From: Schmidtea polychroa
Lineage: Eukaryota
DNA length: 64,000 nucleotides
Direction: 5' to 3'
NCBI GenBank assembly: GCA_044892525.1
Contig: CM097887.1
Location: 10,230,001 to 10,294,000 of the forward strand
A program made the position numbers and the translations under genes. Position 1 is the stretch's first letter, and every line of letters begins with the position of its first letter. This document shows, piece after piece, positions 4,381 through 48,380 of the stretch. Below the pieces are notes generated by a model that was not told where the DNA came from, did not search any database, and saw nothing but the letters and a program-made list of their open reading frames with translations.

Positions 4381-5317
4381 GTTTTGAGTGTAACCAAGTA
4401 GACAGAATTTAATTTTCTTCAAAATAGCTGGATGTAAAATTAGAAATATTGCAAAGCTTATCATATACATGTATATGTAAAAATTATGAAGGCGTCTCGT
4501 AAAATTACTATTGAGTAATATTACTTTGTTATGGAATGTACAATATAGGTATAATAGTATTTGAATATATATGACCAATCATTTCAAAGCATATTTTAAT
4601 TGAATTTATATTTAGATATCTTGATTAAATAATATTTATTTTGAAAATCAATAAAACATTATTTAAGATAAATTAAAAAAAATTTCTAAATTGACTACAA
4701 ATATTTAATTTATATTTCTTCTATTTTATTGCCTTTTTAGTCTATCAATCAAAACTTTTTTTACTTTTAATTAATTTATATATTCTCTTTAAATTTCACT
4801 TAATTAAAAAAATATTCTAACCAAAATTTACAATTTTAAATAAATTTAATATATTTTAAAATTTATTTGAAATATAATTAGATAAATAAAGATTTTGAAA
4901 AAATTAAAAATTATAAAATCTAAATTTTAACTTGATTTATAGCATTATTAAAATGGTAACACGATAAATTAAGAAATTGTCACACTATTAATATTATGCC
5001 AAAGCAATATCGCAAGTGATTTCTTAAAACGGTTTATTTTCATTTCAGTTTTTTAACAATCGACTCAACAATTTTAATTACTAACATTAATTTTAATTAA
5101 TTAAATTAATAATAATAATTAAAAATTAAAATATAATTAAAAAATTATAAATTTCGAAAAAACATTTATTATAATAAAAAAATTTTTTTATTTTACAAAT
5201 ATTTAAAAAATAATATTTATATTTATATTTATTAATATATTTTTATATTTTTATAAATATTATATAATTCGTTTGAATAATATATTATTATTTATTATTA
5301 TATTATATCTTGTAAAA

Positions 5318-8300: not shown

Positions 8301-8469
8301 AATTGTGCCAGCCCTATTAAAGGAAATAGAATTAAATGAAATGGATTCGCAAAGATATTCCCTCATGAAGCGATTGGAAAGCGGAGGAATAATATTAGCA
8401 AAGGATACTCAACCAAGAAGTTCATCAGAAATCCTCGAAATCGAAATACCCGACTTTAAACATATGTGA
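5318..8469 (+). pseudogene. PSMD1: Intronless, divergent 26S proteasome regulatory subunit Rpn2/PSMD1 copy with one in-frame stop (7727-7729) and one frameshift (~8280)
   Basis: FWPELTDEIPKLE..LAALLVSKIYYHLG, YQLAFD, PC repeats (YSEGGALYAMGLIHAN, HGGCLGLGLAAMG, AMAYCGTGN, DDVRRWAV, NPHIRYGVAMAIG), FQSYWFWHPLANFISLAFTPT, and NPARIVP..GGII. ORFs 5273..7729, 7736..8320 (same frame) and 8284..8469 are collinear with no introns. Confidence 0.92.
6166..6570 (+). repeat. 72-bp coding tandem repeat (24 aa DDDDYSEVPAKKIKLEKEIIGIDI), about 5.5 copies
   Basis: aattggaattgatattg recurs at 6301, 6373 and 6445 (72-bp period), in frame within Rpn2. Confidence 0.95.
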
Positions 8470-25363: not shown

Positions 25364-25365
<2 letters not shown>

Positions 25366-26120
25366 TTGGGTTTATGTGCAAGTCGGTATCAAGACTAATA
25401 CAAGTACACTTTTTGATTACACTCTTTTTTGAACAATTACAATCTTTAATAACTCTTTGATCTGCACTTTTCAATAATACAATAAATCTCACGTAGGGAT
25501 AATCTTCCAACGGGAGATGTCCCTTTCTGGTACGTTCGATTTCAAAATATCTAATTATAACAACTGTTAAATCCTTTTACTCACTCGTTTAATTCTACTA
25601 AATTTTCGACCACCTGGCAATTATATTTCTTTGCTGGTTCCTTTTATACTTGACCCGTCAATTGATTTTAATTCGTCAAGCCCTTCGTATCCAATTTCCC
25701 GGGCTTCCTCCTATCTCTTTCTCTCATTGTCCTAATTTAATTTTCGTCGACCGATCTAATTTCCCCTTTGATCTACCATTTAGGCTCTCCCATGACACTA
25801 GGGCTTTCCATTATCTCGGGTTTCCCATTAGCTCGGGTTCTCCATTAGCTCGGATTTCCCATTAGCTCGGGCTTCCCATTAGTTAATTAATTTTTGTTTT
25901 TTGTAATTTATTCTTTCTAGGGACCCCCCATTGATTTTATTATATTTGAACTCGTCTCATAATTTGGCATCCGCCCATACCAGTTTCCTCCGAAATTATT
26001 CAATTTTTGTTTTTTTGATTATTTTAATTAATATCTTTGTATTTTACATTTATTATTATGAATTTGGTGTTTTCATTGATTTTCACCTCAATTTTGCATC
26101 TCTTTTATTGAACCCCAACA
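25364..26120 (-). repeat. 3' LTR (757 bp)
   Basis: Matches 47579-48380 apart from about a dozen substitutions and several indels (62-bp deletion, two extra 17-bp repeats). Confidence 0.96.
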
Positions 26121-26133
26121 TATCTCCCCCTTT
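26121..26133 (-). other. Polypurine tract
   Basis: Minus strand reads AAAGGGGGAGATA immediately before the 3' LTR TG. Confidence 0.85.
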
Positions 26134-26458
26134 AATATAGATTCGTCCTCGAATCTGTACATTTCTTATAGCTGAAATAATAACAATACAGAGCTATGAC
26201 GAAATATATTTAAAATCTTGAAATAATATATGTAAAAACTTGAAACAATATATTTAAAATCTTGAAATAATATATTTAAAATCTTGAAACAATATATCTA
26301 AAAACTTATATTGAAATTTAAAAACTTATATCGATATTTTAAAAACTTCCAAACAATAAATATTAGATTCAATCCAAGAAGCTTTAATGCGCAGTCCATT
26401 CTTTTTAAGCTAATTCATATATAACAAAGAAATCACAAATAACGAAATATCGATTTAT

Positions 26459-27515
26459 TCAAATAAACTCTTGTCTAGCAAGAGCTTTTTCAATATATTT
26501 CCTCATGTTAGCAAACCAACCACCAAAATCGATTCCTTCATTATCCAGTGTAGTCCGTATTCTGGTTTTCAATTCATCTCGATTTGCAGCCGAAGGATGA
26601 ATGGCAAATAGCACCGATTTAAAATGGCTAAAGTACTCTTCAATCGGAGTAAGGGGGTAAAAATCGAAAATTAATATTATTAGACTCCAACAGACTAATA
26701 ACAGTCCTGGAATGGTGAAACCTACAGTTATCCATTATCAATACGTCATTCGGATTAGATCTAAAATGGCTCAACAACTTTTCCTCAATAAAACCACAAA
26801 AACTTTCTCCGTTAAAAGCACCATCTTTGATTTCATAAGAAACTATTCCAGATTTCTTAATTGCCACCATACAACTGATATTAGTACCACGATTGCCTTT
26901 AACGATTTTGTAGGCTTTTGAATTTTTGGGCGAGTAACCGTAGTTCCTGGTTTGATGCAAATTCAGTCCGGTTTCATCCAAAAAAACCAAATGATCATTC
27001 GAGATAAAATTTGTTTCACGGGCGTATCTTTGCCTTAGATCGATATTTTTAGGGGTGTTTCGTTCCTGTGGAATTCTGACCAGTCGTTTCCTGGTATATT
27101 CCATCTTTTTAAGTATTTTAGAAACAGCACTCGAGCACCTAGTTATTCCGGAGTGTTGCAACTCTTCGGATAGTTCGGGCTGGGTAAATGAGGCGTCTCT
27201 TTGTAAAATTTGGCTTATTTTGGATTTCACGACGGACAAATCTGCCATTTTCCTTCCTTTCTTCGGACCGCAGATTTCTTCGTCCGTTGCGCCGTCGCAT
27301 AGTTTTCCGACCAGGTTATATGCGGTCTTTAGACTAATCTCTTGCTCGGAGGCGATTGTTTTTGTATCGGTATTTTTTTCAACCGATTTTCGGACTCGTT
27401 TTATGATTTCGAGCGTAACAGTTTGCCGCCTTTTTCGAACCCTGACATCTTGGCGCTCTTCGGAGGTTTGTTCAGTGCTGTTGGACATGGTTGAGTGATT
27501 TAGTTTTGAATGCAT
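26459..27515 (-). pseudogene. Tc1/IS630-family transposase with a ~14-nt deletion at ~26640
   Basis: HTH region, VFLDETG, MDNCRFHH, FLPPYS|PIEEYFSHFK continuing in a shifted frame to RQEFI* at 26459. Restoring PxLN gives DD34E. Confidence 0.92.
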
Positions 27516-27574
27516 AAATTCCAGTCTTAAAATATATCGATGTAGGTTTTTAAAATTTCAATATAAGTTTTTAG

Positions 27575-28107
27575 ATATATTGTTTCAAGATTTTAAATAT
27601 ATTATTTCAAGATTTTAAATATATTGTTTCAAGATTTTAAATATATTATTTCAAGATTTTAAATATATTGTTTCAAGATTTTAAATATATTGTTTCAAGA
27701 TTTTAAATATATTATTTCAAGATTTTAAATATATTATTTCAAGATTTTAAATATATTATTTCAAGATTTTAAATATATTGTTTCAAGATTTTAAATATAT
27801 TATTTCAAGATTTTAAATATATTATTTCAAGATTTTAAATATATTGTTTCAAGATTTTAAATATATTATTTCAAGATTTTAAATATATTATTTCAAGATT
27901 TTAAATATATTATTTCAAGATTTTAAATATATTATTTCAAGATTTTAAATATATTATTTCAAGATTTTAAATATATTGTTTCAAGTTTTTAGATATATTG
28001 TTTCAAGATTTTAAATATATTATTTCAAGATTTTAAATATATTGTTTCAAGATTTTAAATATATTATTTCAAGATTTTAAATATATTATTTCAAGATTTT
28101 AAATATA
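27575..28107. repeat. 22-bp tandem array (ATATATT(A/G)TTTCAAGATTTTAA), about 24 copies
   Basis: Direct reading. About 4 inverted copies at 26205-26295. Confidence 0.95.
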
Positions 28108-28983
28108 CTAATAACAATAACAATAATAATAATAACTTTCTATTTATTTTTATAGAAATCAAGCTGAATGCCTTTCCAATAGTAGCATCATGAAAATAGT
28201 TCCTTGTGATAAATTTGTGATTTTTATTTTCCTCAATATCCTATTATCATTTTCATCTCTAAATTTGATGTGTATATATTTGCAGTGTTTTGCTAAATCG
28301 TCATTAAAAAAAAATATTTTAATTTATAAAGTAACTACATTATTCAATTAACAAAATATTGATTAAATTTCACTTTAATAAAACTTTAATGAAATAAACA
28401 ATTTAAGAAAATGATGTTGATTTTAGTTTTAATAAATAATCAATGAAACATTTATCCTCAATTTGCCGTACCTATCTAACTGCATAGAATTCATTTGCAA
28501 AATTTCCTAGCAGCAGAACTTTTTTGAAAAATTATGTATAATTTAAATAATTTGCCGATCAACTGGAGCCGATGTAATCGGACTCCTGTCGGTTGATCTC
28601 AATTTTCATGGAGGGAAGAAAGACGGACTAATCTTTTTATTAGATTATTTTTTTTTATTATTTTAATTTTAAAACTTTATCGAAAGTTTAACGAATTTTT
28701 TTGATTGGACAAGATTTAAAATGAATTTCAAAAGGGAAGACTTTAGATGAATTTCAGTTAAACTGCTATTTAAGAATTGAAATAAAATAAATTCTTTTTA
28801 ATTGAATTTTAATTTTATGGTATTTACTGAACTTTATAAAGGCAATTATTATTATGATCTGTCAAAAGTAGTTTTTCGAATTTATCGCAATAAATGCAAT
28901 TATTATATAATCAAAACATTTTTCAGTGAGTGAACTTTTAATTTTATTTTTTTCACAGTTTTTTTTTGGAACTTAAAATATAT

Positions 28984-29430: not shown

Positions 29431-30895
29431 TTAATCCATCTTTATTTCTAATCGTTTTGTTTCATGCCGATATCGTATTATTGTTTCTTCTCGTTCATAT
29501 ACTACTCCATTGACAGTGACAGTGTCTCCGACATCAATGTTTGAAGTTGTTTTTCTCTTCTTGGATTTTCTACATTCTGGCATTGGACCATATTCAAGTG
29601 TTGGATGTGTCCTTATCATCGAAATGCTTATCATTAATGCAACACATTCTTCCGCAATTTCTAAGAATGATTCATTGGCCCACTTCAATTGAATCAATGG
29701 ATTTTCACTATCCATCGTTACATTCTCCTCGAATGTTAAATCAATTTCTTCAGATTCCATTACATCTTCAATTGGAATTTGCGTTAGTTTTTCTGGTATT
29801 GCAGTTGATGTTGATTCAATTTCCCGAAGCTTCTTATATTCATCCCACGAATATCTCTGACGGTTGATTTTTGGGCATCGGTATGTCATCAATCCATTGA
29901 CTTTCCACTCTCTGGTATACCTTGCGTATACTTTTCACGTCCTCGAGAGCCGAATGAATACTCATCTGAGTCTCTTCTCCACATATTTCTTTCACCACTG
30001 TTTGTAGTTTGAACCATTCTCCCTTTATGGTTACTCCCATGTTCTGAAGTATTGGTGCTGCTGCTAGATCTCGAATGCCGTACAATTGTTCAATCCATAT
30101 CCCCAAGTATTGTAATTCTGCATGCAAATCATGGCCGATCAATATCTTGCCCACTGTCAAGTGTTGAATCTCTTTTATTGCCACATATTGATCACATTGG
30201 TTCCTGCTGGCCACTTCTGTAATTCCATGGATCCTTGAATTAAAATGTCGGATTTTTCCTCTTGGAGTGAGGTATACATCTTTAACTACTTTCCCATAAT
30301 AATTCATAATTGCTATTGCTAAAGGGACCATTTTTTCTTGCTCTGATGTGCCTTATTCAGCATCAATGAATAATATTCTATTGCGGATTTCTTCTAGATA
30401 CATTTCTTTTCTGAGAAACGACAATTTCTTTTTCAACATTTCCTTTGAAATTTTCAATAACAATGGGTCTTCTTCAATTAGATGCATCTGTGGTACCTCG
30501 TCCGCTTCATTCTCAGTTCTGATTTCCACCACCAACGTTGTCTCCTCATTCGCTGCTCGTAGTGTTCTCCACATGAAGTCCTTCTGCAGCTTCCACGATG
30601 TGAATTTTCGAAGTTGCCACCATATTGTATTATCGTTCTTCAGCACTTCCACTGTACCTCTGATCACGTGTATGTGATATTCTTCCTTCCGAGACAACTC
30701 AATTTCATCTGTCAATTTCAATTCTGAATTTCTCCTTATTGTAAACATTCGTATCTTCATTCTTCTGTCATCTATCCGCAAATAATTTGGAATTTGTAAA
30801 TTTTCATTGATTTCGTATAATTGTTGGCTGGCATGATTTTTCTGCATCTTGAAGTAACTGTCGTAGGTGGATCTTGCCCATTGTACTTGTTCCAT
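29431..30895 (-). pseudogene. LTR element ORF3: N-terminal unknown domain + DEDDh (REX4/ISG20-like) 3'-5' exonuclease + C-terminal unknown domain; one stop (30353) and one frameshift (~29875)
   Basis: ILFIDAE* (ExoI), AIAIMNYYGKVVKDVYLTP..FNSRIHGIT, ILIGHDLHAELQYL (ExoII), HSALEDVKS (ExoIII). ORFs 30353..30895 and 29840..30331 share a frame. Confidence 0.85.
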
Positions 30896-31298
30896 TTTTG
30901 CTAAAATAGTTATAATTTAACGTTTGAATTTAATTTACTTTTAAAACTAGGGCTGAGATAAAGTATCCGAAGGATACTGTCCCAACTATTAGCTGTATAA
31001 ATAATAATAATAATAATTACCGATTTATTTGGGTGTCTGTTTATTTTTTGTTTCATTTTTTTTTAAATTAATTAAGTTTAATGAGTTTAAACCCGCCTTT
31101 TATACCCTTATCAAAATTTTCTTACCCTTTCATTTTCTTAGTGCTAACCAATCAAATTAATGCTTTTATTTCGTATTGAAAAGTGCAGATTCACATAAAT
31201 AAAATAAATAAATAAAATTCTGATTACATTCATAAAATATTAGTACTGTATTACTACTGCTACTTTATCAAATGTGCATGCAAAGTATTTGTATCTTA

Positions 31299-32192
31299 CT
31301 ACACAAAAGTTTCTTCATAGACAATCCAAGGTCTCGCAATCTCGGATTGGTTCGTAGAAGATTTGGATATTGTTCGAGATTCATTTGACACAATGATGAT
31401 GAGAATAATGAGAAAGATTATTATAGTTAGACTAGTTGATAATAATGTTACACACACAATGTCATTATCAGTATTTAATAATGTAAAATAGCTTTTTGAT
31501 TGGGTCCGTTTTTCGGGAAACATTCACCGTTTGATTGTAGATGTGAAAGATTACTCGGTTTGTTTCATTAACTAATCGTATCATGTGTTGACTAGAATGG
31601 ATTTTGACCCATTGACTCTTAATTTCGGTTCCATTTTCATAGAGATTTTTCATAATAATGAATGTGAATATTATAAGTGTGATGTTGTTTTAAATTGACA
31701 TAATTTACAAAGGGTTTTCTGCTGTTCAGTGTATCGATTGCATAATTTTGAAAAACTATTTTTATTTGTTGGGATTCACGGGGTTCCCAATATACGTCAA
31801 TTCCATTTACCAATGGTTCAATTGATACCCGATTTTGTAATCTCTTTGTCCAAATATTAATGCGTATAAGATTTTGTATTTTTGTATTATTACTTTTCGA
31901 ATCCAATTGCGTAATTAACCAAGGGTATTCATAATTCATTGTTAATTGTCTAGCCACATAAATATTTTTGGTGCTGTTCAATTTTATTGGGGGTTCAAAG
32001 TAGTTTATTAGATTATTTATCTCTATTTCTTCTGCTTCTCCAGCATAATAAACCCAAACTATTTGAGTACATGTTGAATAAATATGAACTTTGTCTAATA
32101 ATACAACTGTATTAGTTGCATATAATGGGAATACTCTCACTGCATTTACTGACATTATATTGATAATCATTACTGTTGTAATCAATAAAACT
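31299..32192 (-). CDS. Second predicted type-I membrane glycoprotein at the end of ORF2 (unknown family)
   Basis: Signal-like VLLITTVMIINIMSVNA (32141-32192), sequons NST/NNT/NGT/NET/NQT, and C-terminal TM TIIIFLIILIIIV (31389-31428). Confidence 0.6.
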
Positions 32193-32309
32193 TTATTGAT
32201 GTAACTCAATGGGGCAGGGTTTTTTGTAAACTTTTGTTTAAGGAATGTGTTTCCTTCATCTTTATTAAGTTTTGATCTTAATGGGTAACGTGATTCATCT
32301 TCTACTAGT

Positions 32310-32530
32310 ATCTTTTTACATCTATTTACATGAACGATGATTGTTCCAGCCTTTTTATTGTTTTGTGGACGCAATTTTAAATTAGTCTCTGTTGTATCGC
32401 ATACTAGATATGGTCCTTTAAACGGTCGTTGTAATTTCGCTGACAATCCCTTTGTTGGTTCTGGTTTGTTTATATACACTAGATCTCCAATTTCAATATC
32501 ATGCGCCCGTGCGCGTTCATGCACTATTTC
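32310..32530 (-). CDS. Gypsy integrase C-terminal GPY/F (SH3-like) module
   Basis: HDIEIGDLVYINKP..GLSAKLQRPFKGPYLV...IIVHVNRCK. Confidence 0.88.
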
Positions 32531-32554: not shown

Positions 32555-32860
32555 TCCAGTTTTCAGATCGAGAGAAATTCCTTGTAGTTGCTCCATTACG
32601 TCCATGCCAATAAGGCATTTTACAGGGCTGTTCCTCATTACTGATACCCAATGAATTATTTCTTGATTTCCAATTATCAGTTTAACTTCTAATTTTCCAA
32701 CAATATTTAGTGCATTATGTGACATTGATTTAATAATGTGATTAGTTGGTTTTATTTTGGCTTTCTCCTGATACGTCAAGAAACTTTCCGCTACTATAGT
32801 GTGATTTGAGCCTGAGTCTAATAAAGCTTCCACTTTTCTCTTATTAAACTGTATGTTTGT
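32555..32860 (-). CDS. Retropepsin-type aspartic protease
   Basis: KVEALLDSGSNHTIV (DSG at 32810-32818) and CLIGMDVM. Confidence 0.92.
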
Positions 32861-33296
32861 TCGAGGTTGTCTTCCTCCTACTACTGCTGTCATAAGTGCA
32901 TAGCTACATGGTAAACCAAGCATATTTTTTCTTTCAATCTCAGCACTCGTTGGTTCAATCTTTTCTAATTCGATTGTGATATTATCTACAGGTTTCATTT
33001 CTTTTAATTGTTCATTTGGATATATTGGTGCTGTTGGTTTAAATGTTGGAGTGTACCATCTAGTAAGAGTATCAATTCCACTTAGTTTTGGCATTGGTTC
33101 AAGTAAAAATCTGGATTCTGGCTCCCTTTTACTTTTTATTACACTTTTTCGAAAGCATTTATGTTCTGATTCGCCGTTGCTACTGTCATTGTTATGATCG
33201 TCGTTTTTGTCTTCCGACTGACATGTAGATTCCTCACTTCTCCGGCCATTTCTCAACTGCACTCTTACTCTTGCCATTTCTTTAAATTGATGATCT

Positions 33297-35089
33297 GTAA
33301 TAAAGAATCTGGCCAATAATGGAATACAGCCAATAATTAATTTCCATGACCATCCAGATATTGCATATATTCGATGTACTGATAATATCTGTGACACTAT
33401 CACCTTTGCTGTTATCACGATTACGTAAATTCCGATTAAGCCTGCACATGCTTGTCCCAAAAACATGAACTTGCCCCAAATCTTTTCCATCGTTTTGTAT
33501 GTAGCTCGTTTGAAATGATCAGGTGTTAGCAAATACTCGTAATTTACTTTTCCTTCCCCATTCGGTAATATCGTGTCAATCATTTCTGAAATTACTCGTT
33601 CTTTCTTGGATGGAAACAACAAATTTCTTTGAGCTTCTTCAATATCCTCGCTTGGGTACAAACTTATTTGTGCCATTTTGTTTAATGATGTGAAATTTAT
33701 CAGGTATTCTAGATTTGTTGATTCTAATTTGTCTGGAGTCTTGACTCCACGATAGTCTGGTAAAGCTATCCAAGAATCTGTTGCTAATCGGTATAAGGGT
33801 GCTAATAATCTATTACATTGTAAAATCTTTGGTTTAGTTTGTTCATCAAGCAAAATTCTAGTTATCGGTTCCATAAATCGTATCTTTCCACCGAGGCTTA
33901 CTGGTAGTTCGTTTGTGCATTTTTCATATTTAGTAATTTTCACTGAGACTTCTTTGCATTTGTAACTGTATAACGCTTCTCCAAAAATTCTCGCAAACAC
34001 GCCACTTTCTGATATTAGCATAGGTGCTACTAAATTTGGATTCGTAATTGCCATCGCCATTCGATTTCGAAGAATCTCTTTGTTTAGCTTGCAATCGTTT
34101 AGAATCATTTCTCTATATACATTTTCCATGATGTTTTGACTAAAATGAAACAAATAATCAATTTTATTATTAAAATAATGAGTAAGTTTAATATCATCTC
34201 TGTGAATTTTAATTTTTGCCTCTTCCACAACATTTCTAGACACATAAACGCCTTTATAATTTGTTACATACACCATTCAACCACATTTGTTGGTGATTTC
34301 CTTTTTTACAAATCGCATGCCATCTTCTGGTAATGTAGACATTAAAACTGTTCCCATTTGTTTTGTCCATATTGGAGTTGACTTAATAGTATCATTTGGT
34401 CTATATTTCGTATTAAAACTATCAGGTTTATCTCTAAACTGTTCTCCCACTAGCTCTTTAAAATTCATAGTTTTTAAGTGTGCTAAAATACACTTATTGG
34501 TTTCGACATTATAGACAAGAATCGATTCCCCCGTTTGACAATTTGTTTGTTTCATATTACAGAATGGATGTGTTTGTAGCTTTCCCGAATTATCGTCGAA
34601 AGCTCCTTCAAACTCTCTCAACTCTGTTAGATATTCTTCCAGCACAACTGTGTGCTGAACAATTTTACCATTCATTTTGTATGGTTCACCTTCACAATCG
34701 CCATTTGCTTTCATAACTCCTTTTACAATTATTGTTTCTCGTATCCTATGATTCAATTTTGCCTTTAAACGAATTTCCGGACTTATTTTTAATTCTCCGG
34801 TTTGAAATGCTGTTAGACAGTTTTCTGGGAGTACCTCAACTGGCCTAGGTATCGCATGCATTTTTATAAGTGACGTATGACTCCATTTGCCACAATAGAA
34901 TACAAATGTTGTATGTTTGACAATACACTCTCTTACTTGAGTTCTTCGTAAATCAGACTCTTGATACACGTAATATTTTATATCATTTTCTATTTTCAGT
35001 TTACTAGTATACGCACCTGGGCATTCCGACATATCAACTACTGAATAAATTTTTCCCATTTCAGTTTGGGAGCAATCATATGCAACTAA
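33297..35089 (-). CDS. Chuvirus (Jingchuvirales)-like envelope glycoprotein
   Basis: Mature N-terminus LVAYDC after a signal peptide. Motifs FYCGKWSH, GDCEG, CG.MVY.T, YFNNKIDY, GEALYSYKCKEVSV..CTNELPV..RFMEPITRIL, and C-terminal WGKFMFLGQACAGLIGIYVIVI TM. About 600 aa with one stop at 34277. Family recognised from motif memory. Confidence 0.78.
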
Positions 35090-35242
35090 TGATGATGTCT
35101 GCGTAATTATTGCACAAAATGTAATCATCATAAACATTGCCCACGGAAATATCATAGTTTTTCGCAGTTCTGGTCGAACTCTCTCATTGACTCGTTTTTG
35201 AGGTGGTTTCCTCTCTTGATTCTCGTTTTTCTTTTCTGTTAG

Positions 35243-35512
35243 AGACGAACACAGTGTTCTCCAACCACCATTTTCCTTTACCCAGTTCATTAGATATTCG
35301 TTTACTAGTCTGGCAGCGATATCTATCAAGTTATCTAATTTATCTGATTTCGCGAACGCATACGTTCCACTTTCTAAAACAATATAAGTTAAAGCTGTTA
35401 TTATCACATCCTTGTTAATTTCATATTTTGTTAAATTTTCAATTACTGATCTCTCGCAAAATGTATCCTCTTCGCCAAATTTCTGTACTACTTCAGGCAG
35501 TCTATTGTTCAT
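35243..35512 (-). CDS. Bcl-2-like domain (clear BH2, degenerate BH1)
   Basis: YLMNWVKENGGWRTL matches BH2 WIxxNGGW. EINKDVIITAL sits at BH1 spacing (NWGR degenerate). Followed by a basic linker and a hydrophobic anchor at 35090-35155. Confidence 0.7.
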
Positions 35513-38500
35513 CCTCTACTTCTATCTCTATTTCGAACATCGAATATACTGTTTTAACGAGACGTTTCAAAACGTCCTTAGTTTCGTCTACATCTTGTTC
35601 TAACCTCAATAAATATTTCTTTATTTCATATAAAGTTCTAACTTGCTTCTTTTTGCTTTCACCATTTGTTTCGCTTTCTGGTACAAGTGACTCTCCTTAT
35701 ACTGTTTCTGTAGACTGATCTTTTTTATCCAGCTCCTTCTGACCATCACCACTAACGATTTCCTCAATTTCTTGATTTACATTTACTTCTTCACCTTGTG
35801 CTTCTGTGTCAGACTCGCTGGACTTAATCTTGATTTCTAAACTTATTCCCTTTACTACAACTATATGGTTCACTAAATATCCCGCTCGTCCATTTCGGAT
35901 CAAACATCCATTTTCTCTCAGCTCTTGTGGAATACATCCGCGATCATATAAATATTCATCATCATCACCTTTGTACATTACTATAATAATTCCATCTTTC
36001 CCCATCGTTTCAGCTGCTCTCTTCCGTTATTTTCGAACCTTTGTACACCAATGCTCGTCTATATATTCCGTTTTTCCATATCCCTCATATTCTAATGCTA
36101 TCAAAAATGGCTTTAATTCAACTCTTGCCTTCCTGAGCTCCTTGCCCAATCTCTGTAATAAATCTCTTAACATTTTAGCATATCTGGTTTTTACATATAA
36201 ATATGGTCGTATTGCATTTGCAATTTCTATTTTATCGTTTTCTTCAAACTCTGATTTGTCAATCATTTGTAATTTCTCATTTATTTCGTCTTCATTTCCA
36301 ATATATAGCGCGTCATTCAATTTCTCTAGTATATCATTTGAACTTTTTACTATTTCCTCACTACTACTCATGCTCATTTCATCGCCACTCACTACACTTA
36401 CCATTTTTAATTCATTTCTACTTCCGGGTATAAATCCACAATCTACTGTTGGGATATGCAAGGGAAAAAAGATTAACCTCATTACCAAACATACAAATCA
36501 TCATCGTTCCCCTCAGGCCATTCCCCGACATACTCCAGATGATCTTGCTGATATTCCCGCGTGTGAGCCCGTGGTGATGTTCCACGTTGGTACTGCCCGC
36601 ACGGGTCGGAAGAGGTTAGCAGGCGAGCCCCTGCCTTAGGACTACTCCTAACCCCTTCTCAGTTCGGATTCCACGGTGCCTTAGAAGGACTTACCCCTTT
36701 CTGCACTTGTACTTGGTCCGACCCTGGTCCAAGGGAACGACCTTCATTCAATGACACATTTTCAGTTTATCAACCGATCCATACATTTCACCCATCACTC
36801 TCACAAACATATCATCCAATACAAAGAAAATTTTATTGTTTACATTGCATACCTCTATTACCAAAAACAAAAAATCTTACACCAATATTTAATGAAATGA
36901 CAATCAAAACTACAGATAAGTTATTTCACACAAGAGGGTTAGTCAATAGGTCTATCGAGAGCAAGAAATAGGTATTGTCGTTGTATTGACTCATCAGAAG
37001 ACTTCTCCGTCGGCGAATACTTCGTCTATATCCACAGGTAATCGGCGATCCGCGAGATACTTGATACCATCGGCCGGAACTACTCGGAATATTTCCTTGG
37101 CCGGAATCACGTGAGAATTCGAGATTTCTTTGATGGTGGACTGGGCCACTGATAATGAAGCCTCCAGCGAAGCGATGGCATTCCTACGTTTTTGATTTTT
37201 CGCGGCACGCGTCGGCCGCTTGCGTTTCCGATTTGATGACGAGGGGTCGACCGCTTGTTGTGTCGAGTGAGGCTGCAGAACCGGAGCCAAAATGGGGTCC
37301 GATGGGCCTTTTGACATGGGCCTGGCGCTTGAGAGAGACGGAGCGAAAATGGGAGATTATTGGGAGCCATGTCCCTTGCAGCTGGTTGTCGATGGAACTA
37401 CGGACATTTGATGGTGTATTGGGAACACGTTTGTTCCGTCCTGGATCGGATATTCCCGAACTCGCTTTGAAATTTCGACATCAGTGTATATCTTGTGCAA
37501 GGCCTCTGATTGGGCTTTTATCGTGAGCCTCTGGCACCTGCTTTACTCTAGGAGACTGTCACGGCAGTGCTCCAGTCTTAATATCTTGTTTCGCTCCTAC
37601 TTCATTTGTGGCGGGGAGAACCACGTGCCTTCATAGAGGTCTTTGCGTTTCTTCAAGGCCCCGATGTAGAGATGCAACTTCCTAATATCTTCGTTCTTGT
37701 CCGAACACGAGAAGCATGGGCGCAAATCCTTTCCTGATTTGATCGGTGTGGTCATCTGAAGATAAAGAAGGTTCCTGTTAAGATTACAAGAAAATCATTT
37801 GTGTATTCGTTGACGGATCTCTCGTGAGATCATGGTAACTCCCTCGACATATAACTCGATGACCCTCAGAAGAACTTCGACGGATTGTAGACATACGAAG
37901 TATTACTTACCACCAACAACCTGTTCACCCAAAGCAAATCATACAAGCTAGGAAAAGGAACGGGACCCATAACAAGCATATATTCACTGTATTAGCAATA
38001 TTCTAAATATTTGAAACTTGATAAATCCTTCTTTAGTTATCTCCTAATTCGGGCAAACCACTTATTTTTGAAATTTAAAAATCATTTATTATCATTCACA
38101 TCACCCTTATATTAGTTGTATGGTGATTATTCAACCACGTTATTATCGCTCGACGTGTCTGGTATTGAATTAAATGGGCACTCTTTAAAACACAATGTAA
38201 ATTCTATTTACATAAAATATTTATTTGCGAAATAATCTAATTTAATTTAACGCCGTGGAAGTAGTCATAGAAACCACTGATTAGATCACTGTTCTTTGCT
38301 ATGATTCGAGAAAATGCATGCTGGAATTAAAAAAAAAAAAATCAAATTTTATTTTAGTAAATTCGGACTGGCCATAAGGCCGAAGGGGGGAACTTCCCGC
38401 CACTTAATTTTTCTTTTTTCTTATTACTTCAATTCTTCTATTGCAGGAGTTGGAAACTCCCGCAATTGGACGTTTGTTCTCCGGTAAGCTTCGTACGGGC

Positions 38501-39202
38501 GAGAGAAGATAATCATGGCCAAGCATATTCCCGATCGGCCATGGCCCGCATATCAGCACCGGACATTCATTCGTAGATTAGGCTTTCTTGTTTTCGCTAT
38601 CTCTCTCTGGTGAGATTATTATTACTGTTTAGGAGCATTCAATGCCTCTTTCTGATAAGTTAAATGCTGTATTCTAAAAATTAGTTATTTTTTCGGAGTA
38701 GAAAGACTCCATTTGCGATTGTTGTAGCGTTACTATAGATACAATATTATAATATATATAGAATGTGGTAATTAGGAAGGAGCGATTATAGTATTGATAT
38801 GAACGCAAAATGGTACCACCAGTTGGGCGGAGCCTTTACAAAGACTCCTACAGGTACCAAACTGATAGTACCTTTACCATATTGCTAAATGGGCGGGATT
38901 CCTACAAGAGTCCCTACATCAACCCTTTCAGCAATAACCAAGAGTATTATATACATATATTTATCAATATAACGAGATTTATATATTATTGTATTATTAA
39001 AAAGTATATTTACGTTTATTAGTTTATTTAATTTTATTTATGGTAGTTTATTTATATTAAATAAATTAATCATATTAAATTATATTAGTTTATTTATTTT
39101 GTTTTTATTAGTTTATTAAATAGATTATTTATATTAGTTTATTGGTGTTGGAAGAAATAAATTCATTTTTACAAAACATCAAAAAAAAAACAAAAGTAAA
39201 GG

Positions 39203-42200
39203 TTATTTTATTTTATTTTATTTAATATATGTACTTAGAGTCGATATCAAAGATCATAGCAGATATAGTACAGATAAGTCGATATATATAGTAGATGTAG
39301 GACATATAAAGGTGACGGTTTGATGATATAATATTACCATAATGGACAAATAAATAAGGATTAATAGATAAGAAGTACTTTTATTATAGTTTAATTAATT
39401 AGTCGATGTATGTGTGCTCGCGATATGTATGGTAGCTACTGACAATGGCTGCCGTGCATGCTACTCTTGAGATTGATTTTATCTCTTTTTTGGTTAGTCC
39501 TATTATTTTAAGTCTTGTATCGTTTTCCTTATCCCACGATCCAAGAGTACCTACTACAAGTGCTGCAACTGTTGTTTTACATTTATATGCGTGGCCTATT
39601 TCAAGTGCCAGATTTTTATATTTTTCAAAATTATTATCCCTAGCTATTTTAAAGTTTTCACGATTTTCGTAAGGTACTTTAATGTCTAGGATATGTATTA
39701 GGGAGTTCCTGGACGATTTAATTATTATGTCGGGTTTAAGTGTAGTTTTGACACCTTCGGGGCAGATTTCAATGTCCATTTTGAAGTTTAGTTGGGTCAG
39801 GAGGTCAGTGACAGCTTCAAGTACACGCGAGTGTTTATTTCTCCGTGCATTTATTTTTACAGGGCAATGATTGAATATGTGGGCCTGTGTTTCAGGAAAG
39901 GCTCCACATTGTCTGCAAAAAGTGCTTAAATTGCCTTTTATTCTATGTGGAGTATATTTAAGGTTGAGAATATTGTTTCGTGCCCTTAAGAGGAAAAGAA
40001 ATTGGGCATCGTTTAGAGTATCAGTTTTTATAAAGTAGTCTGCTGTTGTACTATCAGAGATGGATTTGGCTATGTGTCCTTGACAGGTAAGGAGGCACCA
40101 CCTTTCAGTGTGTATCAGGCTTATTATTGAATGAAGTTCGGAAGATGTATCAGATAAGTTAGACGATGAGAAGTAATTAATACGGTCCTTATATATTATC
40201 TCTAATTGGTATTCGTCTTCTAAAAGGACTATTTTGGTGTGTATGGCGTATTTTATGCGAAGGCGATTGGATGCTTTGCGGAATTTTACAAAGAACGAAA
40301 AAGTAGGAAATGATTTTGAAATCTCGTCATTGACCCATAGGAATGCGGCTTCCATATTACCCATTCCACGAGATTCCGCCAGTTCATCAAGAACTAGTTT
40401 TCGGAACCCAAGGTCGACCGAATTCAAGGCTCGAATGAGATGGATGATACTCTGTATCAGATATTCATCTATTGCAGATGTGAGCCCAAGGCCTCCCATT
40501 TTAGTTGAGGCATATAAAAAGTTATTATTAATATTAATAATTCTGTCACCTATAAAAGTCTTTATTATAATTTTTATTTTTTGGTCAAACCCTTTTTGGG
40601 GTTTTCTATATTTAATAATATTATCCTTATGAGAATCAAGCATATTGTGAGCTATTTCGCAATTACGTAAGGTGAAAGAAAGACGTGAGTGGATAAAGAT
40701 CTTATAGGCATTAAGTTTTTGCGAGGGATGTAGATGAGAGTCGAAGATAGACTTTGTGTCTTTTATGGCATTATCGAGTCTTTCATCTATGTTATGGCTC
40801 AGTTTGAAAGAAAAATCAACTCCAAGATATCTGTAAAGGTTGGAGTCATCAATTCGCGGAATAAGTTCATTATAAAGTTTTATAGGAGAATATTCATAAT
40901 CATGGTTAATGTGAAAGTAACCAGATTTAGAGGGTTTGAATCGAAGGTTAGCCATAGAAGCGAGACGTACAGTTTCGAGAAGAGCGACGTTTATAGAGGT
41001 ATATGAATTAGCAACAAGGACAATGTCATCCGCATAAGCAAGTATGCCGACATTATGACCATGGAAAAGAAATGGATGATTTTGCAAGATATTACGTAGT
41101 ATGAAGTCTATAGATAAACAGAAGAGGGTCATAGACAGGGGACAGCCCTGTTTTACACCCTTAACAATTGGTACAGAAGAGGATTTTTCCCCCTCGCAGT
41201 CAAATATAGTATTTACGTTGCTATACATATCCTGTAGTAGCAAGATGGTTTTTGAGTCAAGACCCATTTGGGAGAGGGTGTGCCAAATTAGATCATGAGG
41301 GAGCGATCCAAAAGCGTCAGAGATATCTAACCATATAATGTGGAGGTCAGTTTTTTTTACGAAAGGAGGATTCCTTAAGAAGATGTAGGATAAAGTTATG
41401 CTCAGAACAACCATCTGGAGCACCAATGGCTTTTTGGTTGCATGTCAATAAATTACCGTCTTTGATCCACGATAAAAGGCGGTTATTTAGGAGGGAAGAG
41501 AAGATGCGATATGCAGTGTTCATTAAGGAGATGGGGCGCCAAGAGCTGGCCTCGTGACTGATTTTAGCTTTACCATTTTTCAGTAGGAGTTTCGTACGGA
41601 AAGTTTTCCAGGATGATGGGCAATTGCGGTTGCGTAAGATGTTGTTACAGAGCGATAGAATGAAGCTGAAGTCAGGTGAGATTTTTTTCCAATCAGCCAA
41701 AGTGATTCCATCGAGTCCTGGAGCAGTGTTTTGAAGTTGTGAGAAAATGAATTTGATATCATTCAAGGCAAAAGGAGTGGATGAGAGTTTTTCCGGTAAA
41801 GATGGAAGGTTTTTAATAAGATCCGTATTGCAGTGTGCGGAAGTACCTGCGAAAAGTCTCACAATATTAGACATAGTTGGTTTGCTACACTCAACTTTAT
41901 TATTTAAGATCTTTGTTATCTCCTCTTTAGGTTTAGTTTTATATTTAAAACGTTTAATGCAGAGCAGTTCATTTTTTGTCCTAGTTTTCTTATGGACAAT
42001 GTCTGCAGGTTTTTTAATTTTATATTTATCAGGAGAAATAAATGAATTTATTTTTTGCATTTCATTAAGGGCTGTTTCACAGTCCATATTATTATTATTT
42101 AAATTAATTATTATGCTTTTAATAAGTGGGGAATATTTTTTAATATTATCTTTAGGTATTTTATGAGAAATATAGTTTTCGATAACAGTTCTGATATATT

Positions 42201-43071
42201 TTTGCATGATATCAATTTTAGGAGTAGTTAATTTTGTATTTCTTATTAGGCATTTGATGAAGTGGCACACAAAAAAGGCAGATTCGTTTGAGGAAGAGCA
42301 ACGGGGGTACTCATATTTAGTGAGTCTAATTGTGATTGGTGAGACGATTTTTTGAAGATCAAGAATGGTATTAAGTATGCTATTTGCTAGAGATAAGTGT
42401 ATGGAGTGGCTATCATCAAGTAAAGGATCTATTATAACAGCAAGATGTCTCCGCTTATCAAGATAGAAGAAAAACCAGTTGTCTTTGCCGTTTGACATTG
42501 GCATAATGATTTCGTTCCACTCAGCGAAATCTTTGAAAGGGAAGGAAGAAAAGAAAGTTATGTAATTGTGTTGGATTAGAGCGTTACCAACAAAGGGGTC
42601 AACGAAGATGGTGGATTTTTTGATGGCGAAGGAGTAAACGAATGCCTTTATTGTGTGCTGGGACCATCAGGCTGACTCCTTATCAACATTATTAGTGAAT
42701 AAGCAATCATCTGGTATATCCCTACTAAATTCAATATTAATCATATCTTCATCTGAAGAAGTTAGTTTTGCTTCCTGGGTGTTTACAGGCACCTCCGGGG
42801 TGTTTACAGGTATCTCGAGGTTAACTGCAATCACCTCCTGGGTGTTTAGAATATTGTTTAATATATTATCATTAATATCCATGGATACAGGCATTTCGGC
42901 GGTATGATTTTGTGATGTTAGTGGGATATTATTAGTGTTAGGTGGTATTGGGTGTCTTTGGGCTATATGATTTATAATGTCATCTATTGGGACCCAGCAA
43001 TTGTAGTAGGAAACAAAATCCACTAGCAAGCAATTTTTCCTATCCGATCTCGTCGTAACTTCGTTACTCAA
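39203..43071 (-). mobile_element. RLE-type non-LTR retrotransposon (NeSL/Utopia-like) nested in the LTR element; 5' end not defined
   Basis: One ~1220-aa frame 43071->39399 with one stop (42667) and one homopolymer frameshift (~41350). Ulp1-like domain; RT (WRPISL, WLDISDAFGS, GVKQGCPLS, YADD, YRYLG); CRQCG..ETQAHIFNHC; PD..D..KY endonuclease; (TAAAA)n tail at 39203-39223. Confidence 0.92.
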
Positions 43072-45116
43072 TTTACTACCTATGGTTTCAGTGTGTTCAG
43101 AAATGACGTCACCGCCTTACACTTTGTCTGGGAGTTAGTAGATGCACATGTGTGTATTGTTAGAGTTATTTGTCGTCGCATGTAGGTTGGCTGCTGGATT
43201 TTATGTGAATGGAAAAAAAAATCTATAATAGGAATTATGACATCGATGTTCTAATTTTTAGATTTTCGCCGTGTTGATCGACTCGATTCCAACTCCACGA
43301 TTGTTATCCTATTAGCCATATTTACTCCGATAGTCGTCGATAAACGCATTTATGAAGAAGTCGTTATCCGATAATCTATAACGGGGTGTATTTGGAAAAT
43401 AGCTTATCTATCCACTACCGTTCGATTGTAGGAGAATAGGATTGTAAGATAAATTTTCAACGACTGGCCGATTCACGGATTTTCTCAAGACTGTCGTGCG
43501 TATTTACACTGGTTATCGCAAAACTTTGATATTTTTTCTAGGCGAACGAGTTGACGACGATGACAGCTTTTCAACGTTTGTTTGCCGATTTCTTTCGAAT
43601 CGGATAAAAGAAAAATCGGAGTGATAGATCTACCCGCTAACGTCTTAGCGGTGTGCATCCCTAAAGAATTTTGTTCTTAAGAAAGCTACGACGAACCTCA
43701 TGGATATTTTTAAGCAAAACATAGTCCTCTATCATTTAAATGGTTTTAGCAATAACTCGTCCATCAGCGTCGAAAGTGACAAAGTTCATTGAAAACGATT
43801 GAATTCGCGGGAATGCTTGGACATATGCAGCTTTTTCCTGGACTTCCTATGGAATTCCTCTTCCTATCGAGATGAATGACAATTATTCCCTTATGAAAAG
43901 AATCCTCGAGAGTAAATGATCTCACTCGGCGAAAAGGTTCCTCTCAGTTCCATTGTCATCGTCTACCAGATGTCCTCACCCTTCCTGACCCACCCAAGAA
44001 CGGCATACATCTCTGCCACCATTCTTGGACCGTCAGGAAGGACGATTCTATCTCTCCAAACCTCAATCATTGATATATCATGAACGATTATCAAACGAAA
44101 AATAAATCATATAGTTTACAAGATGGATTAATATTACTAGAAAAAATTATTTACCTGGCGACCACGCCGCCTGAATCTCGAACATGATGTTACATCGTGA
44201 TACTTATCGCACATTAACATTTCATTCCCAGTGAGGTTAATTTCATTCAAATTCTCGATTCAACATCTTCGTTTCTTATCGTTCGCTCCCAAGCATTTCC
44301 TTGCAAATTCATTCGAGTCTCCGCATCATGTCCGATCTCCAGACAACATCGTCGCCAGCATCATAGAGAGAGAACATCTTTGTAATCAATAGATTTTTAT
44401 TAAAAATAAAGTATTTTATTTAATCATTTTTATGTAAATCAATCGTAAATCAAACTTCATTCATCCCACCTACTATTAGTTTCTCCTCGAGAGTATTGAA
44501 AATGAGGTCTAGATTTTTCTCTTCCAAGTTAAGCGTCCTATTATTTTAGATGTAGTCCCTGTAAATCTGTTCAATGACGTTTGATAAGTGGTTCCTGTAT
44601 GATTCGTAGATCCTAGTCTGTAGAGCAGTTTGGGTAAATGGTCAATTCAATAAACTAAAATTTTTACCTGTAGAGCAGTTTGGTTAAATGGTACTCTACA
44701 GATATTTTCTATTTCTTTTATATTATTTTTCGTCCAATCAGGACACGACTTGTGTGTAATATTATTATTTATTATTATTTTTATGTTTTTTAATAAAATA
44801 TGGTATATTTTAATAACTTTTCTTATTTTTATTATTATTTTAGTTATTTTCCTATTTTTTATTATTTTCCTCCTGTTTTTTCCTGTGACCTTATTGTTTT
44901 TTTGGTTATAGTATAATTTTTTGTTTTAATTAGTTTATATATTTATTTGATAATGATTTACTTTATTTTATTTCCTAATTTCTGGTTTATTTTTCTTAAA
45001 TTTATTATTTTATTTCCTTCTGCTATTATGTGTGGTGAGTTATTTTCTTTTTCGTCTTATAAATTTTATTATTTTATTAGTTATTTTTATTCCCTTTATT
45101 TCCTATTTCTGTTATG

Positions 45117-47115
45117 TTAATCTAATTTAGTTGTTCTTTTATTTTCCGCGCTCTTCGCGAAATTTATTTTATCCCCTTTATTCATCTTTAACCTGATTTC
45201 CAATACTCTCGAAGCTTGGCCCAACACTACCAAGAATTCATCGTTTTCTAGCGGTCTATCATTAAATCTCAATTCTATCATGCCTCCTTCCCGTTTCTCT
45301 TTTAATTTAATTTTTAAATCATTCACGCTATCATTTGCCTCACAACGACAACAGATTATACTTTTATCAATCTCATCTACTACTTCTACAAAAATGAAAT
45401 CAAACCCTTTATTTTCCCTTAACATCTTTCCAAACATTTTCATTAATTCCTTAATTTCGTCTTCATACTTTGGATTCATGTTATAATAGTTAACACACAA
45501 GCTAATTACACTTTTTGTCTTTCTTATGCTCAAGGATATTTGACTTAATTCCTTCAACGATTTAATTATTTTGGCCGACTCTATTTCATTATTTCCAATT
45601 AATTTTTTTAATTCTTGTCATAATCATTGTTGCTTTTTCATTTTCTAAGTCATCTTTTATAACTTTCTTTTTCTCCTTTCCATTCAATTCTTCCGGTGCC
45701 TCATACATCATGTGATTATTATAGTCCTCGTCTGATTCAAACTTTGACATCAATAGATCTAAACGTCGACCCATTTCTCTCACTTCGCTTTCAATTATTT
45801 CATTAAAATTATCTGGCTGAACAAAAGCCACATTATCTGTCTGTGGTTTGTCACTTTGAAACCTAATCGACATCTTTAATATCGGCCTTTGAAATTTATC
45901 CGTATTCCTTGGACATGATCTGGCCATGTGTCCATAACCTCTGCATGAGTGGCACTGAATTTGTCCTTGTAAATTTAATTTATCTCTCTGCGGTGATGGT
46001 GATGTTGACGTTGATCTTGATCTGGCAAAACAATTTCGTGACATATGCCCTTTCCTTCCGCAATTATAGCACTGCAAATTCTCATTATTCCGCTGATCAT
46101 TGATATTCATTTTGGTGAAACTTTTCCCACCATTTCCTTTTAACCAATCTGGCCACATTTGCCTTGGACTACGTTGTACATTATTTTTGGACCAGCACTG
46201 ATTGCTGTCATGACCCATTCTTTGGCAATTATCACACTAAATTGGAATTGGGTTTCTCTGTACTCTATTTTTAAACCAACATTGGTCAACATAGTGTCCA
46301 ATCCTTTGACAATGACTACATTGAATAGGGCCTTCTTTTCCATCAATTTGAATATCTGTTGATTTGTTCGACTGAAATTTTGATCTAAAGTTTGGTGATG
46401 GACTACTTGTTTGTTGAAACCGATTGTTTTTAGATGGAGTTATTGATCTTTCCCTTTCGCCAGATATGACTGCAAACGACTCTGATTTCGACTGCGTACT
46501 TTTCAAATTCAACTCAATTTTCATTGCCTTTTTAATCAATTCATCAAAGTCATTAAAATCAACATAACACAAAGCCTTTTTAATTTCTTTCTTTACTCCG
46601 GACAAAAATTGATCCTGTAGCAACTCTTTTACTTGCTTTGCCATCTCAGCCTGTTCTGGTTTCACTTCGAATGCTTTCTCTGCAAGGGTTGTTAAATGAT
46701 AAGCAAACTCGCTTACGGATTCCTCTGACTTTTGTACACGGTTATAGAATTTCTACCGCATCATCCTTTTTATATCTCCTCCTATTAATTTAGCTGCAAG
46801 TGCGTCTTTCAACTTTGTCCAACCATTTGCTATTAATTTTTTATCAATTTGTTGCCATGCTTCTCTGGCTGCTCCTTTCAGGTATAGCGGTAATCTTTGA
46901 ACCATTATCGATTGGCTCCATCCATAGGCTGTCGCATACATATAATAATCTGCCATGAAGTCGACAAATGCCAACGGATCTCCCCCATACTGATCTACAG
47001 GTAGTTTTTGACAACTCGCATAGTCACTGCCTTCCTTGGCATTCCCCACAGAAACTGTGGACACGGGAGTTTCATCATTATTATTTGTATTATTAACTTG
47101 TCTTTGGGTACTCAT
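45117..47115 (-). pseudogene. LTR element ORF1: gag (capsid, four CCHC knuckles) + C-terminal ubiquitin-like domain; two TAG stops and one frameshift
   Basis: YGGDP..F..Y..A.AYGW..LPLYLKGAAREAW and QKSEESVSEFA..L..LA..QFLSG. Knuckles CSHCQRIGHYVDQC, CDNCQRMGHDSNQC, CYNCGRKGHMSRNC, CHSCRGYGHMARSC. ATG at 47115. Confidence 0.92.
45174..45401 (-). CDS. Ubiquitin-like domain at the gag C-terminus
   Basis: IFVEV..SIICCRCEANDSVNDLKIKLKEK..IELRFNDRPLENDEFLVVLG..VLEIRLK aligns by eye to ubiquitin (IFVK..[43 protein letters not shown]). No C-terminal GG. Confidence 0.65.
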
Positions 47116-47551: not shown

Positions 47552-47574
47552 TTCAGATCACGTCGGGCTCACCA
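47552..47574 (-). promoter_or_regulatory. Primer-binding site complementary to the tRNA-Trp 3' end
   Basis: Plus strand TTCAGATCACGTCGGGCTCACCA resembles eukaryotic tRNA-Trp ...TTCAAATCACGTCGGGGTCACCA. Lies 4 nt inside the 5' LTR boundary. Confidence 0.9.
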
Positions 47575-47578
47575 AATA

Positions 47579-48379
47579 TGTTGGGTTTATGTGCAAGTCG
47601 GTATCACGGTCTGACTCCTTTGTGTTCTTTTTCAAAATCAAGATAACCCAACACAATAATTTTATTCAAGACTAATACAAGTACACTTTTTGATTACACT
47701 TTTTTGAACAATTACAATCTTTAATAACTCTTTGATCTGCACTTTTCAATAATACAATAAATCTCACGTAGGGATAATCTTCCAACGGGAGATGTCCCTT
47801 TCTGGTACGTTCGATTTCTAAATATCAAATTATCACAACCGCTAAATCCTTTTACTCACTCGTTTAATTCTACTAAATTTTCTTCGACCACCTGGCAATT
47901 ATGTTTCTTTGCTGGTTCCTTTTATACTTGACCCGTCAATTGATTTTAATTCGTCAAGCCCTTCGTATCAAATTTCCCGGGCTTCCTCCTATCTCTTTCT
48001 CTCATTGTCCTAATTTAATTTTCGTCGACCGATCTAATTTCCCCTTTGATCTACCATTTAGGCTCTCCCATGACGCTAGGGCTTTTCATTATCTCGGGTT
48101 TCCCATTAGCTCGGGCTTCCCATTAGTTAATTAATTTTTAATTAATTTTTGTTTTTTGTAATTTATTCTTTCTAGGGACCCCCCATTGATTTTATTTTAT
48201 TATATTTGAACTCGTCTCATAATTTGGCATCCGCCCATACCAGTTTCCCCCGAAATCATTCAATTTTTGTTTTTTTGATTATTTTAATTAATATCTTTGT
48301 ATTTTACATTTATTATTATGAATTTGGTGTTTTCATTGATTTTCAACTCAATTTTGTATCTCTTTTATTGAACCCCAAC

Positions 48380-48380
<1 letters not shown>
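47579..48380 (-). repeat. 5' LTR (802 bp) with TATAAAA (47920-47926) and AATAAA (47661-47666)
   Basis: TG...CA ends with terminal inverted repeat TGTTGGG/CCCAACA. Direct repeat of 25364-26120. Confidence 0.96.

Follow-up and report, generated by a model that had tools for sequence, protein, structure and literature searches.

The window (the whole stretch of Schmidtea polychroa DNA analysed, 64,000 nucleotides long) holds a decayed copy of a Ty3/gypsy LTR element which encoded Gag, Env and Pol in one frame, probably as a polyprotein predicted to thread the endoplasmic reticulum (ER) membrane four times, with Gag and Pol tethered to that membrane and with an Env tail that could recruit ESCRT. 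The layout is real but already published: the original prediction took it to be new, but it was described in 2019 (PMC6431247) and has been surveyed across phyla (PMC13524379), and our finding adds one family. The late-domain-like motifs of the Env tail seem to be the new part.

The element is multi-copy and about 15.8 kb long, and the window copy, on the minus strand within an AAT microsatellite, spans 48380 (5′ LTR) to 25364 (3′ LTR; Table 1). Membership of the Metaviridae is indicated by paired TG...CA LTRs with a short target-site duplication, and by a tRNA-Trp primer-binding site, whose final three bases are complementary to the CCA added to the tRNA, together with a polypurine tract; the siblings add the PR-RT-RH-IN order and a Ty3-type RT (best solved relative Ty3 RT, E 1e-85; next 2.5e-50), deleted in the window copy. 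A search of the 781-Mb genome with the junction region gave 775 first-look candidates, 40 of which were scored (92-100% identity), and our sibling set consists of 35 of the remaining 39 scored places with their surroundings. One sibling without interruption is 15,786 bp long and is flanked by a 4-bp target duplication, and two others measure 13.1 and 17.1 kb; such 4-bp duplications were present in all three siblings with both ends located. Dating by LTR pairs succeeded in 4 of 36 copies, the end motifs used being too strict. The tRNA-Trp genes of the host form a tandem array with 284-bp spacing (contig C4, from 55,022,433); the tRNA-Trp pattern had 821 matches genome-wide, and nearly all of the first 100 listed lie in the tandem array. 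Siblings also carry an accessory ORF2 of about 490 aa, open at 486-496 aa in three of the five inspected, whose RNase_T match (E 0.001-0.002) is under the Pfam cut-off; our guess is that it could counter host RNA defence.

Table 1. Features of the element copy in the window (positions are those of the window).
Feature	Position	Strand	Remark
5′ LTR, TG...CA, 802 bp	47579..48380	-	97.4% identity to 3′ LTR
Primer-binding site, 18 nt, complement of host tRNA-Trp(CCA) 3′ end	47557..47574	-	
Gag (capsid, four CCHC knuckles), helical segment, start of ubiquitin-like repeat 1	45227..47115	-	
Secondary insertion, 8,780 bp, foreign to the element	36447..45226	-	ends TGTTGG...CCCAACA; 4-bp duplication GTAG
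End of ubiquitin-like repeat 1, second helical and ubiquitin-like repeat, acidic linker	35535..36446	-	one stop in window copy
Bcl-2-like domain, BH2-type W..ENGGW motif	35235..35534	-	
Internal signal / membrane segment 1	35090..35155	-	basic N side; small residues at -3/-1 before LVAYDC
Predicted class III (chuvirus/gB-type) glycoprotein ectodomain, cysteine-rich	33452..35089	-	LVAYDC at 35089
Membrane segment 2 and weaker hydrophobic stretch	33314..33451	-	
PTAP and YPNEQL late-domain-like motifs, predicted cytosolic Env tail	33005..33037	-	
Aspartic protease	32579..32869	-	DSG aspartate at 32818; RVP Pfam E 8.8e-7
Deletion junction, ~2.8 kb lost (PR-RT spacer, RT, RNase H, integrase core)	32516..32520	-	
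Integrase C-terminal (GPY/F) module	32195..32515	-	
Second type I membrane protein: segment 3, beta-rich ectodomain, segment 4, short tail	31340..32194	-	lower end approximate
Accessory ORF2, three pieces in window copy	29431..30916	-	weak DEDDh exonuclease and DUF7881_N matches
Polypurine tract	26121..26136	-	
3′ LTR, 757 bp	25364..26120	-	

The window copy is dead: its Env ectodomain contains a stop, about 2.8 kb of RT-RH-IN are deleted and 8.8 kb are inserted. Two in-frame open stretches of the minus strand, 35515-34277 and 34276-31637, are parted by a single TGA at 34277-34279, which breaks the ectodomain. The deletion junction occurs in none of the 98 other genome stretches examined, and the deleted DNA is present in siblings; the Gag part is disrupted by stops and one frameshift, and the insertion site is inside the first ubiquitin-like repeat. 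The ends of this insertion match the element's LTR ends, and it is probably a long solo LTR (~4-5 kb), having no internal direct repeat, of another family; its end gave 1163 first-look candidates in the genome. It contains a non-LTR retrotransposon (39399-43116, minus strand) that has RT, a weak Ulp1/C48 protease and, at its C-terminus, CCHC together with a restriction-like endonuclease motif; we take it to be NeSL-like. A DNA transposon (26203-28110) whose 22-bp repeats form inverted arrays lies in the 3′ untranslated region of the element and carries a DDE transposase-like ORF (26640-27557, minus strand). Elsewhere in the window, an intron-free ORF with 72-bp tandem repeats and one stop (5207-8320, plus strand) is presumably a Rpn2/PSMD1-like proteasome subunit and a possible retrocopy. 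Elements that we assume, from their ORF sequences, to be Polinton/Maverick-like flank three of the first five siblings. A genome-wide BIR search gave at least 150 matches, mostly near-identical stand-alone open frames of 392-393 aa, which suggests an IAP borne by a common mobile element.

In siblings the order in one frame is Gag-Ubl-Ubl-Bcl2-signal-Env-TM-tail-PR-RT-RH-IN-signal-FN3-like ectodomain-TM, and marker spacings put the polyprotein ORF at about 3,400 aa. In one sibling an open frame of 2324 aa takes in CCHC knuckles, the glycoprotein (E 2e-83), protease and RT, along with weak matches to ubiquitin and Bcl-2; in another, the Bcl-2 region, RH and integrase share an open frame. These sibling frames and the mapping of the insertion exclude Gag as a separate ORF, which was the original prediction; in the window Gag looks separate because the 8.8-kb insertion splits it off. 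As Gag is in the same frame, tethering solves no problem of gag/pol separation. The ubiquitin match of the sibling ORFs (E 0.0074) is under the Pfam cut-off, and the two ubiquitin-like repeats are 26% identical (E 3e-6), an internal duplication; the Bcl-2-like domain is also under the cut-off (E 0.03-0.05), with a Bak match at E 6.5e-4.

Counted over the sibling copies where both markers were found, the frame is shared by Bcl2 and signal in 32 of 33, by TM and PR in 27 of 35, by the integrase end and the post-integrase segment in 28 of 31, by Gag and signal in 6 of 27, and by Gag and RT in 2 of 24. None of the 35 siblings of the window element's family is open end to end without deletion; a sister family has 3334-aa open frames with the same domain order in 8 of 68 scored places, and a third family of the same genome shows this order in pieces. 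Ten long database proteins have 34-41% Env identity; Env is followed by a protease over the Pfam cut-off in nine of them and weakly in the tenth, and Gag or knuckle matches lie ahead of Env in three. Four distant polyproteins (P0005, P0007, P0008 and P0012) have two or three aspartic protease domains, one of which immediately follows integrase, ahead of the second membrane protein.

Of the eight TM-PR failures, three are frameshifts and the other five are single stops, spread over four codons. They are scattered, with no conserved stop among them; we reject a programmed stop between Env and PR, and these interruptions are decay. The observation thus survives the refuting condition originally set for it, a stop or new start between glycoprotein and protease in intact copies.

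A single genomic frame could still give separate and unequal Gag, Env and Pol, through splicing, early polyadenylation or recoding, with Pol normally untethered. It is general knowledge that most retroelements make more Gag than Pol. When two subfamilies are compared, the tail shows a dip in synonymous change at aa 1807-1846 (0 of 37 codons; single-window p 1.4e-4), possibly the trace of an RNA signal. However, this dip is absent in comparisons with two more distant families and may be a recombination patch; siblings have no conserved stop between TM and PR; and the internal signal retains its basic N-flank, with a dN/dS of 0.07 between subfamilies. In read contigs from four runs, the three runs guessed to be RNA had no joint, and GT..AG was absent from the 15 joints shown, a result neutral on splicing. 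We consider separate products unlikely, and favour a single polyprotein as the normal product of this frame. Between the two subfamilies all polyprotein parts are under purifying selection, strong in the case of Env, and, because dN/dS is 0.06 for the Env ectodomain, 0.08 for the capsid and 0.03 for RT, Env was kept functional during spread of the family.

A signal-LVAYDC-TM glycoprotein does, as originally predicted, stand N-terminal to the DSG protease and in frame with it, 35155, 35089, ~33451 and 32818 falling in one frame (interrupted by the TGA), and the env-pro-pol order was seen in RT-bearing siblings. The signal is internal and not an ORF start, the frame upstream of it being open through the Bcl-2-like domain. 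Segment 2 occupies ~33451-33395, and the weaker hydrophobic stretch at ~33370-33314 is common to free-standing relatives. Pfam PF24664 (Monjiviricetes_fusion) matches both Env halves (E 1.9e-24 and 2.9e-59), which is, like the RVP match in the same ORF, far beyond chance; the sibling glycoprotein match quoted above is to this profile. An AlphaFold model of a natural sibling Env, made with 111 aligned sequences (pLDDT 89.7), retrieved herpesvirus gB first from the PDB with Foldseek (E 2e-15, TM ~0.44) and, from BFVD, chu-like viral glycoproteins as best matches (E 3e-39, ~20% identity, TM 0.59-0.71 for the top six); searching PDB sequences by profile found gB only weakly (best E 0.019). The Env fold is predicted to be class III, in agreement with the chuvirus-like fusogen first proposed.

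With chu-like viral glycoproteins as the best structural matches, the glycoprotein might be thought a recent chance insertion from a chuvirus into one element copy. Against this, Env is found at the same place in 35 of 35 siblings, in two other families of the genome and in database polyproteins (35-41% identity), while it is only ~20% identical to viral proteins; and a quick tree built from 104 ectodomains groups the 11 polyprotein-type rows, some of them fragments labelled by similarity, in one branch (SH-aLRT 94). Sibling sharing, the database relatives and dN/dS refute such an insertion, to which we give practically no credence, and we regard Env as an established part of the polyprotein.

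Simple hydropathy and charge counts give four hydrophobic segments, with basic N-sides on segments 1 and 3; the charge bias is weak immediately following segment 2, where 25 residues include 2 basic ones, and following segment 4, with 3 basic against 4 acidic. We propose that the polyprotein threads the ER membrane four times. Segment 1 would translocate Env, and host signal peptidase would cut before LVAYDC, with Gag staying anchored by segment 1 after the cut; segment 2 would stop transfer, leaving the tail, PR, RT, RH and IN on the cytosolic side; and segment 3 would translocate the second surface protein. On this model, Gag and Pol would at first be attached to the cytosolic side of the membrane carrying Env, at a ratio of 1:1:1, and the element's own protease would later free them. 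The weaker stretch after segment 2 (KD 1.43) would, if membrane-crossing, place the protease in the lumen. The four-segment prediction agrees with the alternating topology, leaving Pol on the cytosolic Env tail, that was first suggested; a Pol tether to that tail is retained in our mechanism, but its restriction to Pol is not, since Gag would likewise be held.

The second membrane protein, interrupted in the window copy by a stop at 31637 and a deletion of ~300 bp, has in siblings an ectodomain of ~330 beta-rich residues with nine sequons, followed by a strong TM. It aligns across three families (34 and 53% to the first), with an ectodomain dN/dS of 0.27-0.34. The ectodomain model is poor (pLDDT 45.7), with Atlas matches at 0.90 or lower, yet residues 100-192 match FN3 (Z ~8, middling; rmsd 2-3 over 75-83 residues; Foldseek E 6e-5), and at least one FN3-like module is predicted. 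We guess that this FN3-like protein may act in attachment. The ectodomain gave no Pfam match, no homologue among proteins of similar length, and weak septin matches or none among PDB sequences; the literature search met no title or abstract start describing an FN3 protein downstream of integrase, figures and Repbase lying out of its reach. Past integrase, four of six distant polyproteins have two further hydrophobic segments, one is ambiguous and one (P0005) has none; their ectodomains gave no alignment with that of the window element's family. In two relatives (L096 and P0012) the second membrane protein has PPSY in its cytosolic tail; the window element's family ends instead in YEETFV, a possible PDZ-binding end.

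The motifs of the charged, predicted cytosolic Env tail, PTAP and YPNEQL, are kept in 34 of 35 and 35 of 35 siblings respectively, the search pattern itself favouring copies that have them. Among 20 polyprotein tails, including two truncated and one misplaced and several from close kin, 14 have P[TS]AP, PPxY or YPx1-3L against 1.7 expected from shuffles; a strict late motif is missing in three full-length polyprotein tails. Free-standing family members of 550-900 aa have late-like motifs in 46 of 88 tails against 7.1 expected, a count taken without regard to viral or other origin. In the free-standing tails P[TS]AP was observed 16 times (reversed 1, shuffled 0.7) and YPx1-3L 33 times (reversed 3, shuffled 4.3), while PPxY, observed 4 times (reversed 1, shuffled 2.3), is not enriched; reversed motifs and ectodomains are at background level. 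The motifs are kept in unalignable tails. Motifs of the P[TS]AP and YPxnL types bind Tsg101 and ALIX in other viruses, and those of the Env tail would, judged by sequence, recruit Tsg101 and ALIX for ESCRT budding; YPxL also fits a YxxPhi sorting signal. Late domains are placed in other proteins in the passages of PMC6394706. For late domains or ESCRT in a chuvirus or retrotransposon context, our search, with Repbase and figures beyond its reach, gave no title or abstract start describing Env-tail motifs.

More tentatively, and with rather more doubt than confidence, we suggest that the four-pass polyprotein gives retrovirus-like particles with a two-part entry machine (class III fusogen and FN3-like attachment protein) and with late domains in the fusogen tail rather than in Gag; chuvirus/gB-type glycoproteins, in which these tail motifs recur family-wide, would drive their own budding, and their capture would bring exit and entry in one step. 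Alternatively, Env and the FN3-like protein could serve the element in or on the host cell, in membrane-bound assembly, cell-cell fusion or, with Bcl-2 and Ubl, host manipulation, with no infectious extracellular particle. The apoptosis and ubiquitin-like cargo does point to host manipulation, and such elements are described without particles in the passages of PMC6431247 and PMC13524379; however, a complete class III ectodomain conserved like the capsid, and late-like motifs retained in unalignable tails, are as for a budding, fusing particle. We think a purely cellular role improbable, and that a particle accords better with the tail. Should the tail motifs prove to be true late domains, they would account for immediate budding by a retrotransposon on its capture of a chuvirus/gB-type glycoprotein, and for a possible way of budding in matrix-less jingchuviruses, for which an ICTV abstract lists at least GP, NP and L.

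The closest published layout is that of Burro, which has env in frame between BCL2 and PR with matches to mononegavirus fusion proteins, and which was called the first in-frame env between gag and pol (Arkhipova & Yushenova 2019, PMC6431247). As in Burro and GYPSM1, one ORF here holds Gag with CCHC knuckles, Ubl (putative here), a BCL2-like domain and env before PR (PMC6431247), and env lies in frame between the BCL2-like domain and protease. The window element differs in its LTRs of under 1 kb and four knuckles, and in size: ~15.8 kb and ~3,400 aa against the more than 30 kb and 4,873-5,140 aa given for Burro (PMC6431247). Scanned with Pfam at E 0.1, the sibling ORFs had no match to the Burro cargo of MATH, BIR and ankyrin; where Burro has a ubiquitin/SUMO-like domain upstream of BCL2 they have the ubiquitin match under cut-off, and where Burro has a dUTPase-like domain between PR and RT there is a conserved spacer of ~110 aa (dN/dS 0.12) with no dUTPase Pfam match. 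The Burro description in the text of PMC6431247, as far as its passages go, is without a post-integrase membrane protein or topology. Burro1 is reported, in a passage of PMC8532177, to be expressed upon PIWI loss. We file the window family apart from Burro because the core is shared but the size and the MATH/BIR/ankyrin cargo are not.

It also has env between gag and pol with a gB-type (class III) ectodomain, as do the GAG-ENV-POL elements reported from Nematoda, Bryozoa and Platyhelminthes, six of them from Schmidtea mediterranea (Chary & Hayashi, eLife, PMC13524379). Among these, Smed_errantivirus_1 (in full Platyhelminthes_Rhabditophora_Smed_errantivirus_1 in the supplement of PMC13524379) shares the order, the gB-type Env, the multi-copy state and a similar size (~14.8 kb listed); 124 of the 156 first Env residues are identical to those of the window Env (79%, counted by eye), and the two are distinct sequence families. 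The Smed elements have no PBS listed in a table of PMC13524379, in contrast to the tRNA-Trp PBS found here, and the main-text passages of that paper have no polyprotein, Bcl, fibronectin, late domain, ESCRT or cytoplasmic tail. On sequence grounds we file the window family as a compact GAG-ENV-POL errantivirus that may work like Burro, Smed_errantivirus_1 having been compared by Env only, by eye.

The same glycoprotein family has been captured by another LTR element, the BEL/Pao element Anakin (Dezordi 2020, PMC7642597), which is mentioned by name in PMC12440569 and PMC13524379. Anakin has a BEL/Pao RT, whereas the element here is of Ty3/gypsy type, with an RT closest to Ty3 among solved structures, a comparison made with no BEL RT; its integrase GPY/F module also points away from BEL/Pao. 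The Anakin env reportedly lies downstream of pol. As work-alikes, with no homology, the structural polyproteins of alphaviruses and flaviviruses begin with capsid, followed by alternating signal and stop-transfer segments, and are cut by signal peptidase and a viral protease. In the window element's family, replication enzymes stand between the two membrane proteins, and its single-frame, membrane-threaded Gag-Env-Pol is a putative way to build a retrovirus-like particle at a fixed 1:1:1.
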